From: Candidatus Paracaedimonas acanthamoebae
GTDB taxonomy: Bacteria > Pseudomonadota > Alphaproteobacteria > Caedimonadales > Caedimonadaceae
Assembly: GCA_000743035.1 (NCBI GenBank)
Contig: CP008937.1
Span: 30,001 to 62,000, forward strand
DNA: 32,000 bases
Direction: 5' to 3'
Both the position numbers and the translations under genes were made by a program. Shown here piece by piece: positions 22,027 to 29,867 of the stretch. Position 1 is the first letter of the stretch. Each line of letters starts with the position of its first letter. The notes under the pieces were generated by a model. The model was given only the letters and a program-made list of their open reading frames with translations, was not told where the DNA came from and did no database searches.

Positions 22027-22122
22027 GAGAGCATAAAAAAGTGTGGGGCAATTAGGGTTAATCTTTCCTTTGATGAGATTTTTGCTGATACTAAAGCAAT
22101 ATTTCGTTAATTGGTTGCCAGG

Positions 22123-22668
22123 ATGAAACTCTACAGAATAAAGATTGCTTTACGAGGCATAAGCCCTATGGTGTGGCGCCGCCTTCAAATCCCTGGCAAT
22201 ACTTCTTTGGCTAACTTACATCACATCATTCAAATTGCAAATGGCTGGGAAGATGAATATTTGCATCAATTTCATATTTACGGAAAAGATTATGGAATTG
22301 CTTATGAAGGAGGCCTTATGTTTGTTGATAATGCCCATACTGTTTATATGGATGATTTTAAATTTGATATCGGTGATAAATTCACTTACGAGTATAATTT
22401 TTTCAAGCATTGGGTGGTCGACATTCGCATTGAGGGAATTGATGAAGCATCAACATCACAACCATCTGTTTATTGTATAAAAGGAAACGGGATGCCTGGT
22501 GCTAATAAATCTGATGAAATTGAATGCACATTAAACCTTCTCAAAGCTATTGCTCATGCAGATGATACAACAAAACTTAGCGACCTTCGTCTTTTTGTTG
22601 AGGCTTTAAATGCTGTTAGATTTAATCGGCGTCATATAAATAAGCGCCTACAAACAGAAATGGAATAA
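22123..22668 (+). CDS. PRiA4b ORF3-like (MM3350-like) domain protein, IS passenger
   Basis: YRIKIALRGISPMVWRRLQIPGNTSLANLHHIIQIANGWEDEYLHQFHIYGKDYG matches the family signature (...L.gi.P.IWRR..vp....L..LH..iQ.a.GW...HLH.F). The ATG at 22123 is preferred over the TTG at 22111. Confidence 0.75.
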   Translation: MKLYRIKIALRGISPMVWRRLQIPGNTSLANLHHIIQIANGWEDEYLHQFHIYGKDYGIAYEGGLMFVDNAHTVYMDDFKFDIGDKFTYEYNFFKHWVVDIRIEGIDEASTSQPSVYCIKGNGMPGANKSDEIECTLNLLKAIAHADDTTKLSDLRLFVEALNAVRFNRRHINKRLQTEME

Positions 22669-22703
22669 TATTATCTCATCAACAATAAAAATGAGGTAAG
22701 AAG

Positions 22704-24093
22704 ATGAGATTCAAAATCCAAGTTGTTATTGAGAACGAACATCAACAAGAACAGATACAAAATATTGTCTGCTTAGAGAAAGGCAGTCATCAAGGGCATT
22801 GCGCTGGGTTGTCTTTAATAGAGTCCAAATACATCCTGAAAGAGCTGCAACAAAGAATTATACTTCATCAAGCCGAAGATTATACGAATTCAAACATGGC
22901 CTGTCCCTGCTGCCAAAAGCAACGACGTATTAAGGGATATAATACGATGCAATACAAGACCTTATTTGGCACCGTTGTTATTCCTAGCCTACGTTTATAT
23001 GAATGTGCTTGTAGTGAGGAGCCAGCTAAGATTTTTAGTGTTTTAAAGTCATGGCTTCCAGAACATATCAGTCCTGAATTACAATATATTGAGACGAAGT
23101 GGGCCTCTTACATATCATACGAGCGCACAGCGGCATTGATGCAAGATGTATTGCCAGTGCATGCAACCCAAAATGCTGTTACAGTTCGAAATCATTTACA
23201 TAAAGTAGCTAAACGACAAGAAAGAGAATTAGAAGGAAAACCCTTGTGTTTATCAGGCTGTGCGAATGATTGGGCAAAGTTACCGAAGCCTGATAAGCCT
23301 CTAACAGTTGGAATTGATGGAGGATATGTCAGGAGCTGGAGAGACAAGCAGACTAACTTTGAAGTAATTGTTGGCAAATCATTTTCAAAAATAAAACCCT
23401 CTAAACGCTTTGGGTTTGTTCAAGTTCTTGATAGTAAACCCCAAAGGCGATTGTTACACCTGTTAAATGAGCAAGGCATGCAGGCCAACCAGCAAATTAC
23501 TTTTCGCTGATACTGTGCGAGATTTACAGTACTTGATGCATCCTGAGTCAGAACATGTATTAGATTGGTTTCATGTCACCATGCGATTTACTGTGTTGAA
23601 CCAATTTGCTAAAGGTTTTTCTAATTCTCATCCTGAAGATGGAAAAGAAATTCTCCAAAAATTAGAAAGTGCCAAATGGTATCTGTGGCATGGTAATGTA
23701 GGTAATGCTCTTGATTCTTTAGAGGATTGTTACTTGATCTGTGATGGAGAGGAAATCCACTATAAGAATCAAAAGAAGTTTTTGAGTTACCTAGAAGAAT
23801 TGAGTACTTATGTTGAAAACAATCGTCATTTAATCCCTAATTATGGGGAAAAGTGGCGTTATGGTGAAGCTATCTCAAGTAGTTTTGTTGAATCAACAGT
23901 GAATGAAGTTGTGACTAAGCGTATGGTTAAAAAGCAGCAAATGCAATGGACACATACAGGAGCCCATTATCTTCTGCAGACCAGAACAGCGACACTCAAT
24001 GATGATTTACCGAAGTACTTTGAACGCTGGTATCCAGGAGTGAATATTGGTGGGAAAGCTCAAACAGAATTAAAAAGAAAAAGGGTGGTGTGA
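22704..24093 (+). pseudogene. ISKra4-family transposase, split by a frameshift near 23500
   Basis: Two overlapping ORFs (22704-23510 and 23467-24093) lie in different frames. The C-terminal part has LDWFHVTMRF, AKWYLWHGNV and SSFVESTVNEVVTKRMVKKQQMQWTHTGAHYLLQTRTATLND. The junction reads QQITFR* in one frame and ADTVRDLQ in the other. Confidence 0.7.
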
Positions 24094-24124
24094 TTGATTA
24101 TGCCCCACACTTTTTTATGCTCTC

Positions 24125-25229: not shown

Positions 25230-25302
25230 TGATCTTTCCAAGAAATTGTAGACACATTTTTACCGAACGGAGATGATAAATTTCTGTTTAAAAGAGGTAA
25301 AA

Positions 25303-25562
25303 ATGAATTTAAGGAAACGATACGATCAAGAGTTCAAATTAAATACAGTACAGCTCATCATGGGAGGCACAACATCACTGGCAGCTGCGAGCCGTGATTT
25401 AGGAGTTAGTAAATCAACTCTTCATGAGTGGATGAAAGAATATAGAACTCACAAAGATAAAGCATTTATAAAGAGTGAGAGTTCATCTTCTCAAGACCAG
25501 GATATAAGACAACTCAAGCGAGAGAACGAGATTTTACGCCAGGAGCGCGACATCTTAAAAAA
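25303..25562 (+). pseudogene. IS3-family orfA (HTH / leucine-zipper protein), interrupted at its 3' end by IS110; it resumes at 27161-27194
   Basis: MNLRKRYDQEFKLNTVQLI...GVSKSTLHEWMKEY...QLKRENEILRQERDILKK. After the insert the same frame reads ALGIFSSVRK*. Confidence 0.7.
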
Positions 25563-25599
25563 CTTCCTAAAGAAAAGCTCTTTTCCCTCATAAAAGAAA

Positions 25600-25790
25600 C
25601 TTTTTCACCCTACCTGTTATAGTTGAGCTGTCAAAGAGAGCGGCCGTCTGCTTATTGGTGGGCTACCCCGTTAAAAAACATGGTCCAGGGAGTACAACGA
25701 ACCCAGTATTGGAGGTATTTAACCCCGTTTAGGAAAGTGATTTTATTCGTTACTCCCCTCTTTGATTTAACAAACGATCATAAGAGGTAG
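25600..25790 (+). ncRNA. Candidate bridge RNA in the 5' non-coding end of the IS110 element
   Basis: ACCCCGTT occurs twice (25665-25672 and 25722-25729). Each copy is followed by a string identical to an insertion junction. A 7+5 bp stem pairs 25688-25701 with 25746-25757. See findings. Confidence 0.4.
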
Positions 25791-25793
25791 ATA

Positions 25794-27158
25794 ATGACTC
25801 AATCTAATAGGCACCCCAGTATGCCAATCGTTCATCCGAATGCCGCTGGGATTGATATTGGTTCCAAGTTTCATGTGGTTGCTGTAGGAAGTGATAAAGC
25901 AACAACACCAGTTCGTACGTTTCAAAGTTTTACCACGGATTTGCATGCTATGGCAAAATGGCTTAAAAGTTGTGAAGTAACCAGCATTGCTATGGAATCT
26001 ACAAGCATATATTGGATTCCTGCTTTTGAGATCTTGGAGAGTTATGGTTTTGAAGTATTTTTAGTCAATCCCCGAGAAGCCAAAAATGTTCCAGGATGTA
26101 AAACAGACGTTAATGACGCTCAATGGATTCAACGTTTACATCAATTTGGTTTGTTACGTGCCAGCTTTAGACCAGAGAAGCAAATTACTGTGCTGAGAGC
26201 TTATATTAGGCAGCGTGAGCGTATGCTTGAATTTAAAGCCTCTCATATCCAACACATGCAAAAAGCTTTAATGCAGATGAACTTACAGCTGCATCATGTG
26301 GTATCAGATATAACAGGAGCAACTGGGATGAAGATTATTCGCGCCATCATTGATGGTGAGCGTTGCCCTACAGTATTGGCAGGATACCGAGATATACGCT
26401 GTAAGGAATCCCTTAAAACTATTGAGGAATCTTTGAAAGGGAATTACCAAGAAGAGCATTTGTTTTCTCTAACTCAAGCTGTTGAGTTGTTCGATTATTA
26501 CACACAAAAAATTAATGAGTGCGATCATCGAATAGAAGAGGTATTAAACTTACTTGGAAAAGGTAATAAGTCACCTGATCAACCTATGCCTAAAGCCAGG
26601 TATCGTACTAAACAACCTAATAGCTTAAACTTTGATGTCAGAGCTTCGCTTTACCAAGTATTAGGCATGGACTTGACACAAATACACGGCATTGGACCGT
26701 CATTAGCCTTAAAATTAATATCAGAGTGTGGTACCGACATGTCTCGCTGGCCGAGCAGCAAGCACTTCACTTCTTGGCTATGTCTTTCTCCTGGGAATAA
26801 AATATCAGGAGGGAAAGTATTATCATCACGAACACGGCGTTCTTCAAATCGTGCAACCGCAGCATTAAGATTGGCTGCTGTTACAATTGGAAAGACAAAT
26901 ACGGCTCTTGGTGCATTTTATAGGCGACTCTCGGCTCGCATTGGTAAATCAAAGGCAGTTACTGCAACAGCTAGGAAAATAGCAGTCTTATTTTTTAATG
27001 CTCTACGTTATGGAATGCAATATGTTGACCCAGGTGCCAATTATTATGAAGCACGATATCAAAAGAGGGTTCTGGATAATTTATCAAAGAGGGCTGCTGC
27101 TTTAGGTTATATATTGCAAGAGAATAAAATGCAAAATCTGGCAAGTGAAGTTTCTTAG
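25794..27158 (+). CDS. IS110-family (DEDD) transposase, 454 aa
   Basis: AAGAGG RBS. The N-terminus is AAGIDIGSKFHVVAV with AMESTSIYW. The C-terminal module reads IHGIGPSLALKLISECGTDMSRWPSSKHFTSWLCLSPGNKISGGKVLSSRTRRSSNRA. Confidence 0.9.
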   Translation: MTQSNRHPSMPIVHPNAAGIDIGSKFHVVAVGSDKATTPVRTFQSFTTDLHAMAKWLKSCEVTSIAMESTSIYWIPAFEILESYGFEVFLVNPREAKNVPGCKTDVNDAQWIQRLHQFGLLRASFRPEKQITVLRAYIRQRERMLEFKASHIQHMQKALMQMNLQLHHVVSDITGATGMKIIRAIIDGERCPTVLAGYRDIRCKESLKTIEESLKGNYQEEHLFSLTQAVELFDYYTQKINECDHRIEEVLNLLGKGNKSPDQPMPKARYRTKQPNSLNFDVRASLYQVLGMDLTQIHGIGPSLALKLISECGTDMSRWPSSKHFTSWLCLSPGNKISGGKVLSSRTRRSSNRATAALRLAAVTIGKTNTALGAFYRRLSARIGKSKAVTATARKIAVLFFNALRYGMQYVDPGANYYEARYQKRVLDNLSKRAAALGYILQENKMQNLASEVS

Positions 27159-27190
27159 GAAGCGTTGGGCATATTCTCATCAGTCCGCAA

Positions 27191-28066
27191 ATGAAGTTTG
27201 CTTTTATGAAGCACCATTCTCATCTTTTTACGATTGAGCGGATGCCCAGGGTCTTTAAAGTATCCAGAAGCGGCTATTACTCCTATACAAAAGGAAAGAT
27301 AAGCAAGAGAGCCCGTGAGAATGCTCAATTGCTTGAAGCTATTAAGACAGCCTATGAAGAGAGCCGGGGGATTTATGGCAGCCCTCGCATTCATGCGACA
27401 CTCATTTTACAAGGCATCTCTTGCAGCCGTCATCGTGTGGCAAAACTGATGCGAGCGCATAGAATTGTCGCTAAAATGCAGAAGAGATTTAAGGTTAAAA
27501 GCAAGGTTAATGCTGGAACTATATTAGCAGAGAACCGTCTTGAGAGAAACTTTAAGGTTGAGGCTCCTGATCAAGTGTGGGTATCTGACATAAGCCAGAT
27601 TAAAACCTTAGAAGGATGGCTATATCTTGCTGTTGTTCTTGATCTTTTCTCAAGAAAAGTCATTGGTATGGTTATGGCAGATCGAATGACGCAGCAGCTT
27701 GTCATTAATGCTTTTAATCAAACTGCAGGAAAAAGGGATATTAAGGGGGGTCTTGTGCATCATTCTGATCAAGGGAGCCAACATACAAGCTTAGCTTTTC
27801 AACAATGCTTAAGCCGTTATGGTGTTCTTTGTAGTATGAGTCGAAAAGGAAACTGTTATGATAATGCAGTGGTAGAGAGCTTCTTTCATACCCTCAAAAC
27901 TGAGCTTATTTATAACAACCATTATGAAACGCGCCAACAAGCAAAGGAGGAGATATTTGAATATATAGAAATATTTTATAATAATAAAAGGATGCATTCT
28001 TATCTAGGCTATATGGCGCCTAATGAGTTTGAAAAAAAATGCTGTCCGGTAAAAGAGTGTCCGTAA
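27191..28066 (+). CDS. IS3-family orfB (DDE integrase core); normally made as an OrfAB fusion by -1 frameshifting
   Basis: DQVWVSDISQIKTLEGWLYLAVVLDLFSRKVIG, HHSDQGSQHTSLAF and SMSRKGNCYDNAVVESFFHTLKTELI are present. The frame is open upstream back to 27161 and is -1 relative to orfA. Confidence 0.85.
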   Translation: MKFAFMKHHSHLFTIERMPRVFKVSRSGYYSYTKGKISKRARENAQLLEAIKTAYEESRGIYGSPRIHATLILQGISCSRHRVAKLMRAHRIVAKMQKRFKVKSKVNAGTILAENRLERNFKVEAPDQVWVSDISQIKTLEGWLYLAVVLDLFSRKVIGMVMADRMTQQLVINAFNQTAGKRDIKGGLVHHSDQGSQHTSLAFQQCLSRYGVLCSMSRKGNCYDNAVVESFFHTLKTELIYNNHYETRQQAKEEIFEYIEIFYNNKRMHSYLGYMAPNEFEKKCCPVKECP

Positions 28067-28082
28067 AATCCTGGAAAGATCA

Positions 28083-28587
28083 ATTATTACTCTCTATAAA
28101 ACCCGGCAAGATGAGGAACGGGATAACTTAGTAATTAGGAATGGAGAGAAAATGCTCTTTCTTTATAAGATGAGCGATCAACCGATAATAAAATATCGGT
28201 CACGAAAACTTTCCAATCCCTACATCAAAGACGAATGGGTAACAGGCCCTGTGAACGTTGAAACGCCATTGCCTACTTATGTTTGGCTAGGTAATGCCGA
28301 GAACAACGAAGTGTGGCGTGAAATAAAAGCTGAGGTAAAGGCAGAGCGAGGAGAGAATTGTGAAATGTGCAGGAGTAAGAAGCAACTCGAACTTCATCAC
28401 ATTAAAGCTCGACGTTACGGAGGGCAAAACATTAAAGAAAATGCACAACTACTCTGCAAGCTCTGCCATCTCAAGACATCGTCTTATGGTGATCGAAGCC
28501 GATTACAATGATGGAAAGCCGTGTGCGGTGAAAGTCGCATGCACGGTTTGGGAAGAGGGATAGGGAAACACACACAGCGTGAGCTAT
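28083..28587 (+). mobile_element. Group II intron 3' fragment (inner intron): end of the IEP with HNH domain, domains V and VI
   Basis: The ORF 28152-28511 ends with CEMCRSKKQLELHHIKARRYGGQNIKENAQLLCKLCH (HNH). The domain V hairpin is at 28516-28549. The 5' part is missing; the fragment abuts the IS3 right end. Confidence 0.65.
28516..28549 (+). ncRNA. Group II intron domain V (inner intron)
   Basis: AAGCCGTGTGCGGTGAAAGTCGCATGCACGGTTT is 34 nt, with a GAAA tetraloop and an AGC triad, close to the canonical GAGCCGUAUGCG..GAAA..CGCACGUACGGUUC. Confidence 0.65.
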
Positions 28588-29605
28588 GGAGGTGCGCCCC
28601 GTCCCTACTTCATTCTCTCCTCTTCTGGCGAATATGGCTCTTGATGGACTTGAAAACCTTCTCTCTATGTTATTTAAACGAAAGAGAGTTAAAGGAAAAT
28701 TGTTTGCTCCGGGAGTTAACTATATTCGCTATGCGGATGACTTCATTATTACTGGTAAAACGCAAGAAATACTAAAGGATGAGGTCAAACCTCTTGTTGA
28801 GGAATTTCTGAAAGAAAGAGGGCTAGAACTCTCTCAAGAAAAAACAAGAATTACGCATATTGATAAAGGCTTCGACTTTTTAGGCCAGAATCTAAGGCGG
28901 TATGAAGGTAAATTACTTATTAAGCCCTCGAAGATGAATACAAAAGCCTTTCTAGATAAGGTTAAGAAGTTGATTAAAGCTCATAAGGCATCAACACAAA
29001 AAGATCTGATAGCTATTCTCAATCCTCTCTTACGAGGATGGGCGAACTATCATCAACATGTAGTTGCTAAAAGAGCGTTCTCAAGAGCAAATTATGAGAT
29101 TTGGAAAAAGCTATGGCAGTGGGCTAAACGTCGGCATCCAAGCAAAGGACGCAACTGGGTTAAGAAAAGATATTTTGTTAACTCAGGAAGTCGCAATTGG
29201 GTATTTTCTTGCATAAGTAAGAACCGCACGGGGAATCCCACACTTGCTAAGCTAATAAATTTAGCGGACACAAGAATTACAAGGCACGTTAAAATCAAAG
29301 CTCAAGCAAACCCTTTTGATCCAGAATGGGAGTCTTATTTTGATAAGCGTCTACATCTCAAAATGGAATCTCACTTCAAAGGAAAAGAAAAACTGCTTAA
29401 GCTTTGGTCAAATCAAAAAGGGCGTTGTCCTCAATGCCAACAAAAGCTCTCCTTAGAGAGAAAATGGCATATCCATCACATTCAACCAAAATGTAAGGGA
29501 GGAAAGGATACAATGTCTAACTTAGCGATGCTTCATCCTAATTGCCATAGGCAAGTTCATAACCAGCTAGAGCCGCGTCTTTTGAAAGGTGTTCAAGAGG
29601 CTTGA
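28586..29605 (+). pseudogene. Group II intron-encoded reverse transcriptase/maturase/HNH, 5'-truncated (starts in RT domain 4)
   Basis: SPLLANMALDGLE (RT4), NYIRYADDFIITG (RT5, YADD), LNPLLRGWANYHQHVVAKRAF (X/maturase) and CPQCQQKL...HIHHIQPKCKGGKDTMSNLAMLHPNCHRQVH (HNH) are present. RT domains 0-3 are absent. Confidence 0.8.
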
Positions 29606-29637
29606 GCCGAATGCGGGGAAACTCGCCTGTTCGGTTC
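29604..29637 (+). ncRNA. Group II intron domain V (outer intron)
   Basis: GAGCCGAATGCGGGGAAACTCGCCTGTTCGGTTC is 34 nt and near-canonical. Domain VI-like sequence follows, up to about 29673. Confidence 0.7.
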
Positions 29638-29673
29638 TTAGGGGAGGGAACGGCAGTAATGCCATTCTCTTAC

Positions 29674-29867
29674 CCGACGCAATTGCAAGATCAAATGAAG
29701 CCAAAGAGCTTGGTATTAAAATGGGCGAGCCTTATTTTAAATATATTAGTGAAAATAACCTTTTTTTAATAAGTTCTAATATAGAGTGCATTACAGAGTT
29801 ATTATTAAGGGGAGATAATACTTCGATGTATTTTAGTGTCAATTTTTGTTCCATATTTCTTAATTAA
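29674..29867 (+). pseudogene. umuC: Y-family DNA polymerase (UmuC-like) fragment; 3' exon of the outer intron
   Basis: DAIARSNEAKELGIKMGEPYFKYISENNLFLISSNIE parallels UmuC residues about 36-75 (CVIARNAEAKALGVKMGDPWFK...VVCFSSNYE). It degenerates and stops at 29867. Confidence 0.6.

Follow-up and report, generated by a model that had tools for sequence, protein, structure and literature searches.

Does the non-coding left end of an IS110-family insertion sequence encode an RNA that guides the element to its target, and can that guide be read against the site in which the element now sits? The question is raised by one locus in the window, the whole 32,000-nt stretch of DNA analysed here. The original prediction pointed to a repeated motif between the left boundary of the element and its recombinase gene, each copy running into a string found at an insertion junction, and proposed that both belong to a bridge RNA. 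Comparison with relatives puts the probability at about 0.85 that positions 25631-25765 encode the bridge RNA (also called seekRNA) of the IS110-family element at 25563-27161. By analogy, this RNA would be produced, bound by the recombinase and used in strand exchange of the IS621 type.

The element is itself inserted into another mobile element. The host belongs to the IS3 family, with an HTH_Tnp_1 orfA upstream of the IS110 element and an rve orfB downstream at 27191-28066. The insertion point is exactly the A-run of the IS3 -1 frameshift window. The parts of the element and its target are as follows.

25563-27161, + strand: IS110-family insertion sequence; the flanks join into IS3-type orfA/orfB, and both ends are kept in relatives
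25555-25562, + strand: left target half and AA core, TTAAAAAA, within the IS3 orfA codons L-K-K
27162-27170, + strand: right target half, GCGTTGGGC, continuing the IS3 frameshift window
25794-27158, + strand: ORF of the 454-aa IS110-family recombinase, identified by Pfam domains and alignment with the IS621 recombinase (PDB)
25595-25602, + strand: left subterminal inverted repeat, AGAAACTT, 33 nt inside the left end and the reverse complement of 27148-27155
27148-27155, + strand: right subterminal inverted repeat, AAGTTTCT, 6 nt from the right end

The core is taken as AA because this is the last dinucleotide of every left flank and every right end. Since the boundary is ambiguous by these 2 nt, 25561-27159 is an equally valid span. 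The non-coding left end is 231 nt long, and the right end reaches just 3 nt beyond the recombinase stop codon, whose TAG falls within the right-end string TTAGGAA. A long non-coding left end with a short right end is the IS110-type layout (PMC11208160, PMC11187229).

The subterminal inverted repeat is 8 bp long in the window copy and 5-12 bp in relatives, and its variable seventh position agrees with the partner in 42 of 47 distinct relatives. The first ~30 nt of the left end (including 25569-25583 of the window) are wholly different between lineages. Inspected by eye, the sequence that separates the terminal AAC from the AGAAAC repeat seems in every case to permit a short hairpin.

The 454-aa protein is an IS110-family recombinase, as had been claimed. 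Pfam finds DEDD_Tnp_IS110 (PF01548, 9e-21) and Transposase_20 (PF02371, 1.3e-13), corresponding to an N-terminal DEDD RuvC-like domain and a C-terminal Tnp domain with the catalytic Ser in a P-x4-S-G motif. Across 27 homologs, D21, E68, D105, D108, S338 and G339 are invariant, and E68, D105, D108 and S338 align with E60, D102, D105 and S241 of IS621. An exact-protein look-up returned no identical protein on record.

Relatives of this protein are abundant. The 8000 candidates sharing most words with it were scored in a protein search, and all pass E <= 1e-20; the clade of ~430-470-aa recombinases comprises well over 8000 database proteins. The closest among the matches listed, at 92% identity, comes from Candidatus Paracaedibacter symbiosus. 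Homologs carry the NCBI name "IS110 family RNA-guided transposase". For comparison of the non-coding ends, 80 genomic loci with 61-70% identity were retrieved from many phyla, together with 12 further loci encoding closer relatives (79-92% identity) and annotated copies from Citrobacter and E. coli. An alignment called A2 is made up of 55 distinct homologous left ends from other genomes. Both CCCGT motifs and their spacing are conserved across the clade in the aligned left ends.

Evidence for an RNA is provided by the way in which the left ends fold. The RNAalifold consensus of A2 has two tandem modules, each made of an outer stem, an internal loop and an inner hairpin. The data also support a closing stem around both modules, as originally proposed. 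The consensus elements are as follows.

25631-25638, + strand: 5' arm of the closing stem P1, TCAAAGAG; 8 of 8 pairs with 25758-25765 change on both sides
25758-25765, + strand: 3' arm of P1, CTCTTTGA
25642-25646, + strand: 5' arm of the target-loop outer stem, GGCCG, pairing with 25681-25685
25681-25685, + strand: 3' arm of the target-loop outer stem, UGGUC
25656-25670, + strand: target-loop inner hairpin, UGGUGG GCUA CCCCG, with 97.8% of cells paired
25688-25701, + strand: 5' arm of the donor-loop outer stem, GGGAGUA, CA bulge, ACGAA, pairing with 25746-25757
25746-25757, + strand: 3' arm of the donor-loop outer stem, UUCGU UACUCCC
25702-25709, + strand: 5' strand of the donor loop, CCCAGUAU, in the position expected for a right donor guide
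25710-25727, + strand: donor-loop inner hairpin, with 98.6% of cells paired and 4 of 8 pairs changing on both sides

Over the 34 pairs, 92.7% of cells are paired in the 55 distinct sequences, compared with 39-55% when partners are slid by 1-3 columns. Compensatory changes occur in 21 of the 34 pairs, and 0 of 500 shuffles reach any of these measures; such shuffle-based statistics are inflated by relatedness, though many of the changes fall in independent lineages. The target-loop outer stem is paired in 98.9% of cells, shows changes from G-C to A-U and from C-G to U-A, and holds an invariant G-U. In its inner hairpin the apical pair covaries (GC 37, AU 10, UA 2, CG 1), and 6 of 8 consensus pairs of the donor-loop outer stem have compensatory changes. 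The G-U pairs 25646/25681, 25656/25670 and 25710/25727 are invariant and can form on the + strand alone, which makes the structure specific to that strand.

Folding of the single sequence gives the same result. The minimum-energy fold of 25625-25772 contains all of the helices, including the predicted 7+5 bp stem with its CA bulge, in which 25688-25694 and 25697-25701 pair exactly with 25751-25757 and 25746-25750. The whole 231-nt left end folds modestly better than shuffled sequences (z = -2.15). A covariance model built from A2 has a single match in the window, at 25622-25772 (125 bits), and one match upstream of every homologous ORF, including the E. coli and Citrobacter copies outside the training set.

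Most of what had been proposed for this region holds in the relatives. Both proposed stems carry compensatory changes, and the consensus from the 55 distinct relatives places both guide-like strings in internal loops, on the 3' strands. The pairing of TCAAAGAG with CTCTTTGA is also real; its partner lies at 25758-25765 and not at 25759-25766. The motif ACCCCGTT was found twice as described, at 25665-25672 and 25722-25729, 57 nt apart. It is a true repeat, but is not itself a guide: the first copy forms the 3' strand of the target-loop inner hairpin plus a GU linker, and the second does the same in the donor loop.

Three further observations concern this structure. RNAalifold also draws a hairpin within the left donor guide (columns 136-138 with 145-147), which was rejected as it has no compensatory change. 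An unpaired UGAU follows the extension of that guide in almost all relatives (25738-25742, A2 columns 145-149), and loosely resembles part of a C-box; a link between IS110 elements and Nop5 has been proposed (PMC11213020). The Rfam scan returned nothing at gathering score for the region and nothing relevant at E <= 10, a result of little weight as evidence.

If the RNA is a bridge RNA, its loops should hold strings that change together with the sequences they recognise. Three such strings can be read in the window.

25671-25678, + strand: left target guide, UUAAAAAA, in the same sense as the left flank and core
25650-25653, + strand: right target guide, GCUU, on the 5' strand of the target loop, complementing the top strand AAGC(G) of core and right flank
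25729-25735, + strand: left donor guide, UUAGGAA, in the same sense as the right end and core

The left target guide lies in TTAAAAAAC (25671-25679), which is identical to the left junction at 25555-25563, as predicted; these are its sole two copies in the window. The C25679 that follows the guide is invariant, and is the first base of the element. In relatives the guide tracks the left flank, for example as TTTGACAA in L039-45, TTCTCAAA in L063, GGCAAA in L068-77, ATATAA in L019/20, TTTAGGAA in L023, CAAGAAA in L079 and AAGAAA in L086. The guide columns match the flank over at least 5 nt in 94-96% of relatives. When any RNA column is compared with any flank position, the three top mutual-information signals are 25674/-5, 25676/-3 and 25673/-6, with identities of 0.92-0.98 between guide and flank at these positions.

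The right target guide was absent from the original prediction and was found in the follow-up. U25649 could add an extra G-U pair to it. Mutual information links 25650 and 25651 to right-flank positions +2 and +1 with a bias to complementarity, and both these columns and 25673-25676, which are identical to the left flank, exceed the shuffled maximum. Flank-tracking matches of 5-9 nt are seen in L003, L014, L030, L054, L055, L059 and L065. Examples are CGAGUGCUU with flank AAGCACTCG (L003), AGACUU with AAGTCT (L055), ACGAUU with AATCGT (L059, L065) and AAAGUUU with AAACTTT (L054). In the close relatives L087 and L088 the guide is GCCU and the flank AGGC.

The left donor guide is identical to the right element end at 27155-27161, again as originally reported. 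It covaries with that end, as TCAGGAA, TTAGAAA and ATAGGAA. Identity between the two is 6.98 of 7 positions, compared with 6.59 after permutation. Permutation among lineages never reached the observed agreement for any of the three strings (0 of 5000 for left target guide and left flank, 0 of 5000 for right target guide and right flank, and 0 of 5000 for left donor guide and right end). The expectation that loop strings would covary with their counterparts in other copies is thus borne out.

To call each string a copy of one insertion junction was apt, as the strings duplicate the post-insertion junctions slightly past the core. After the left donor guide, AG (25736-25737) matches the first flank bases of a target with seven A's. 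Agreement between this extension and flank position +1 is seen in 66% of cases, where 50% would be expected; 20 of 5000 permutations reach this value. Pairs of extension and flank are GG/GG in L087 and L088, and AG/AG in L001 and L089. The 1-2 nt extensions after left guides may, on thin evidence from the sequences, be a handshake-like feature.

The strings that the element is predicted to recognise are these.

Donor: GAAGTTTCTTAGGAACTTCCTAAAG
Target: CTTAAAAAAAGCGTTGG

Head-to-tail copies of the element also occur. Chromosomal tandems with two covariance-model matches per locus are found in L019/L021, L070, L080 and L081. The internal junction of L019/L021 reads TTAGG-AA-C, the expected circle-junction sequence, and that of L070 has three A's.

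In one relative, L023, the left target guide reads TTTAGGAA, the family's own right-end string, and the element adjoins TTCTTTAGGAA. Its own right end and left donor guide are changed to TTAGAAA, with L082 cited for the right end. This element may target the ends of sibling elements.

A fourth string, the right donor guide, is expected to complement the left end of the element. Within the window the predicted match does exist: TTTAGGAA is the reverse complement of the left end at 25564-25571. As a family feature it fails, and the complementarity is restricted to the window lineage and a few others. K-mer scans over several lengths and ranges found no consistent complement anywhere in the left end, and the longest match over the whole left end averages 5.49 nt, compared with 5.44 nt for shuffled sequences. 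Nor was the guide found by analogy with the pairing of the target loop. A 5-6 nt left-end match on the donor-loop 5' strand occurs only in L014, L028 and L022, and in the window just AGU of that strand could pair, with the A-C-T of the left end. When every alignment column was compared with every other for extra pairings of the strand, the result was too noisy, with a single isolated correlation (columns 85/106). Of the four guides on which the IS621 model is built, the element thus lacks one.

Other explanations of the region have to be weighed against these data. It could be a mere 5' leader of the recombinase mRNA, whose structure regulates translation or stability and whose matches to the junctions are incidental. 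The region does immediately precede the ATG, the structure has a promoter-like site (25767-25795) and the ribosome-binding region as neighbours, and structured leaders are common in transposase genes. However, a leader offers no explanation for three unpaired strings that change with sequence outside the element or at its far end. The promoter-like site is also downstream of the structure, so its transcript would not contain it. A leader with no guide function is improbable.

The twin ACCCCGTT motifs and the strings next to them could instead be double-stranded DNA sites, acting as subterminal repeats to which the recombinase binds. Direct repeats close to an element end fit such sites, and a true subterminal inverted repeat at the DNA level exists in the family. 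Against this, compensatory changes keep distant segments paired, and on the opposite strand the conserved G-U pairs would turn into A-C mismatches. Sites for DNA binding need no copy of the target flank either. This explanation has a very small probability.

It is highly implausible that the conservation reflects a small protein gene. The ORF list does contain a TTG-initiated 55-aa frame that spans the region (55 codons, 25623-25790). Conservation follows the stems and guides and not the codons, and the frame is not kept, because relatives in A2 carry 1- and 2-nt indels within the region.

Chance matching in A/T-rich sequence would account for the window counts, which are ordinary (TTAAAAAAC 2 against 1.94 expected, TTTAGGAA 7 against 3.6 expected), but is rejected by the comparative data, in which one set of alignment columns follows flanks and ends that differ among dozens of relatives, and can hardly be credited. 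ACCCCGTT has no other copies in the 32 kb on either strand, with 0.29 expected and two copies reached in 5 of 100 shuffles. Short A/T-rich strings are weak evidence in the window alone, so the case rests on the relatives, where the strings change with their flanks.

The bridge-RNA reading therefore draws on several features by which members of this group can be recognised. The locus has a DEDD/Ser recombinase, an insertion without target-site duplication at a short shared core, and a long non-coding end that folds with internal loops supported by covariation. Loop nucleotides covary with both target halves and with the left donor half (the element's right end). Loop nucleotides that complement the right donor half (the element's left end) were not found.

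A mechanism can be proposed from these parts. The closing stem would enclose two similar modules of the bridge RNA. Bound to this RNA, the DEDD/Ser recombinase would exchange strands at the shared AA, and the element would be inserted in a single orientation without duplication. In the window, as in much of the clade, the element sits in the A-run -1 frameshift site of IS3-family transposase genes. The left donor end would possibly be recognised through the 8-bp subterminal inverted repeat, the terminal hairpin or a very short pairing.

The RNA of IS621 is transcribed from a promoter that is rebuilt at the circle junction. In the element of the window, a promoter scan of the integrated copy found no sigma-70-like promoter upstream of the RNA, and inspection by eye of the reconstructed end-to-end junction found no site with sigma-70 spacing. 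Elements of the clade are always co-oriented with the IS3 genes (25273-25562 and 27162-28066 in the window; loci L003-L094). Read-through from an IS3 promoter could therefore transcribe both the bridge RNA and the recombinase gene.

Judged from the sites themselves, the clade prefers the -1 frameshift A-run of IS3-family orfA genes (ILKK|A). In-frame translation gives IS3-type orfA ends (...ILKKA..YFAKE...) for 18 of the 54 distinct target sites that were reconstructed, and several more fit if KKF, or one A more or less, is allowed. The Pfam neighbours of close relatives are HTH_Tnp_1 upstream and rve downstream. In E. coli, 74 genomes have a full-length relative; among the best 8 listed, 7 lie between transposase fragments, 5 of which are annotated as IS3 family. 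One E. coli copy is inserted at GAAATATTAAAAAA|...|GGCTACC.

No description of an IS110 preference for slippery or frameshift sites was found in the searchable literature. The clade end strings GTTTCTTAGGAA and TTTAGGAAAG are absent from the first 200 of the 222 supplement files of Durrant et al., and the supplements of Siddiquee et al. contain nothing relevant for related end strings or mentions of the IS3 family.

The length of the A-run in the window differs from the one that IS3 elements require. When the window flanks are joined, they give TT, six A's and GCG. Only with seven A's is the canonical IS3 arrangement restored, in which orfA closes with ...ILKKALGIFSSVRK* and orfB can be read through the site in the -1 frame. 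Together, the two junctions (25557-25562 and 27160-27164) are one A short of a conservative insertion into seven. Seven A's also suit the RNA, since GGAA|AGC agrees both with the register that the right target guide has in the family and with the AG extension. In the window copy this guide has 4 bp and one G-U, one position out of that register. No A is lost or gained in L001, L003, L038, L051 and the E. coli copy, whereas the window copy, L012 and L024 are one A short. The target is more likely TTAAAAAAAGCG, with seven A's, than TTAAAAAAGCG. The assay target suggested in the original prediction, TTAAAAAAAGCG, already has seven. Possible causes of the deficit are slippage of the homopolymer register in recombination, a later deletion or a homopolymer sequencing error.

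Other mobile elements lie close to this nest. Two Rfam group II intron matches (28514-28613 and 29602-29678; 64 and 63 bits) flank an ORF at 28586-29605 for a 339-aa reverse transcriptase/maturase, just downstream of the interrupted IS3. The first match contains a large insertion. A maturase gene of a group II intron also lies ~1 kb downstream of the IS110-in-IS3 nest in L084, the relative from E. coli. Elsewhere in the window, ATAAAAAAGTGTGGGG occurs at 22033-22048 (+) and 24103-24118 (-), inverted and ~2 kb apart around ORFs 22111-24093. The two copies may be the inverted termini of a further mobile element.

Programmable recombinases now under development for genome engineering are built on bridge RNAs, for which most of the detailed knowledge comes from IS621 and IS622. 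The locus provides a natural example in a distant clade, with guides that can be read directly against a known insertion site and a recombinase ~40% longer than that of IS621. Its reversed guide order, enclosing stem, AA core and lack of an obvious right donor guide bear on which features of the RNA are essential. It would also be a case in which one mobile element is led by an RNA guide to inactivate another where its sequence is most constrained, in the slippery A-run of IS3. The basic picture of IS110 elements is unchanged by the locus.

The kind of system is already known, and the layout is a variant in a large clade so far undissected. Bridge RNAs have been predicted in 85.7% of the IS110 elements in ISfinder (Durrant et al., PMC11208160).

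The first comparison is with the bridge RNA of IS621 (PMC11208160, Durrant et al. 2024; PMC11208158, Hiraizumi et al. 2024). As in IS621, the RNA lies in a long non-coding left end, upstream of a DEDD/Ser recombinase gene, and has two pseudo-symmetric internal loops, one for the target and one for the donor. To this extent the predicted IS110 architecture holds; the guide order and the right donor guide depart from it. The left guides are in the sense of the top strand and include the 2-nt core, and a short right target guide of 4 nt complements core and right flank. Both systems have a CCGU-type linker ahead of the left guides, and neither duplicates the target on insertion.

Several features differ. 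In IS621 the left guide (nt 50-58) comes first, followed by a stem-loop and the right guide (nt 77-80) (PMC11208158), whereas the element of the window has the right guide (25650-25653), a hairpin and then the left guide (25671-25678). The cyclic order of the guides is the same and the capped helix differs, so the relation looks like a circular permutation. Unlike IS621, the window element has both modules within one closing stem, an 8-bp subterminal inverted repeat and a core of AA in place of CT. A right donor guide, present in IS621, was not found in it. Handshake guides follow the right guides in IS621, whereas the 1-2 nt extensions follow the left guides here. The recombinases have 454 aa and 326 aa and are distantly similar (E = 5.5e-6).

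The second comparison is with the seekRNAs of IS1111-type elements, namely ISEc11, ISPa11 and ISKpn4 (Siddiquee et al. 2024, PMC11187229). In these, as in the window, a segment complementary to the top strand lies 5' of one complementary to the bottom strand. Subterminal inverted repeats are also shared, and repeats of 7-17 bp are a trait of the IS1111 family. However, the non-coding region of IS1111 elements is downstream of the transposase gene and that of the window element upstream. IS1111 transposases have 330-350 aa, whereas the 454-aa window protein is of the size of IS110 proper (395-455 aa, PMC11187229).

The third comparison is with ISEc21 of the IS110 family (PMC11187229). It has an upstream non-coding region with a seekRNA, like the window element, and also targets a conserved coding stretch of IS3-family elements, so that one insertion sequence parasitises another. 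Its IS3 target site differs from that of the window element, and its match to the bottom strand comes first, the opposite order. A reversal of guide order between IS110-type (ISEc21) and IS1111-type seekRNAs has been reported (PMC11187229).

The clade thus mixes the guide order of the IS1111 type with an upstream non-coding region. A bolder suggestion, which is tentative and somewhat doubtful, is that it represents a distinct class of bridge RNA. In such a class the loops would be circularly permuted relative to IS621 and still encoded upstream, and the left guides would be extended by 1-2 nt that copy the post-insertion junctions. The left donor end would be set by the subterminal inverted repeat and hairpin and not read by RNA, and the clade would be a dedicated hyperparasite of IS3 elements that splits their -1 frameshift site.
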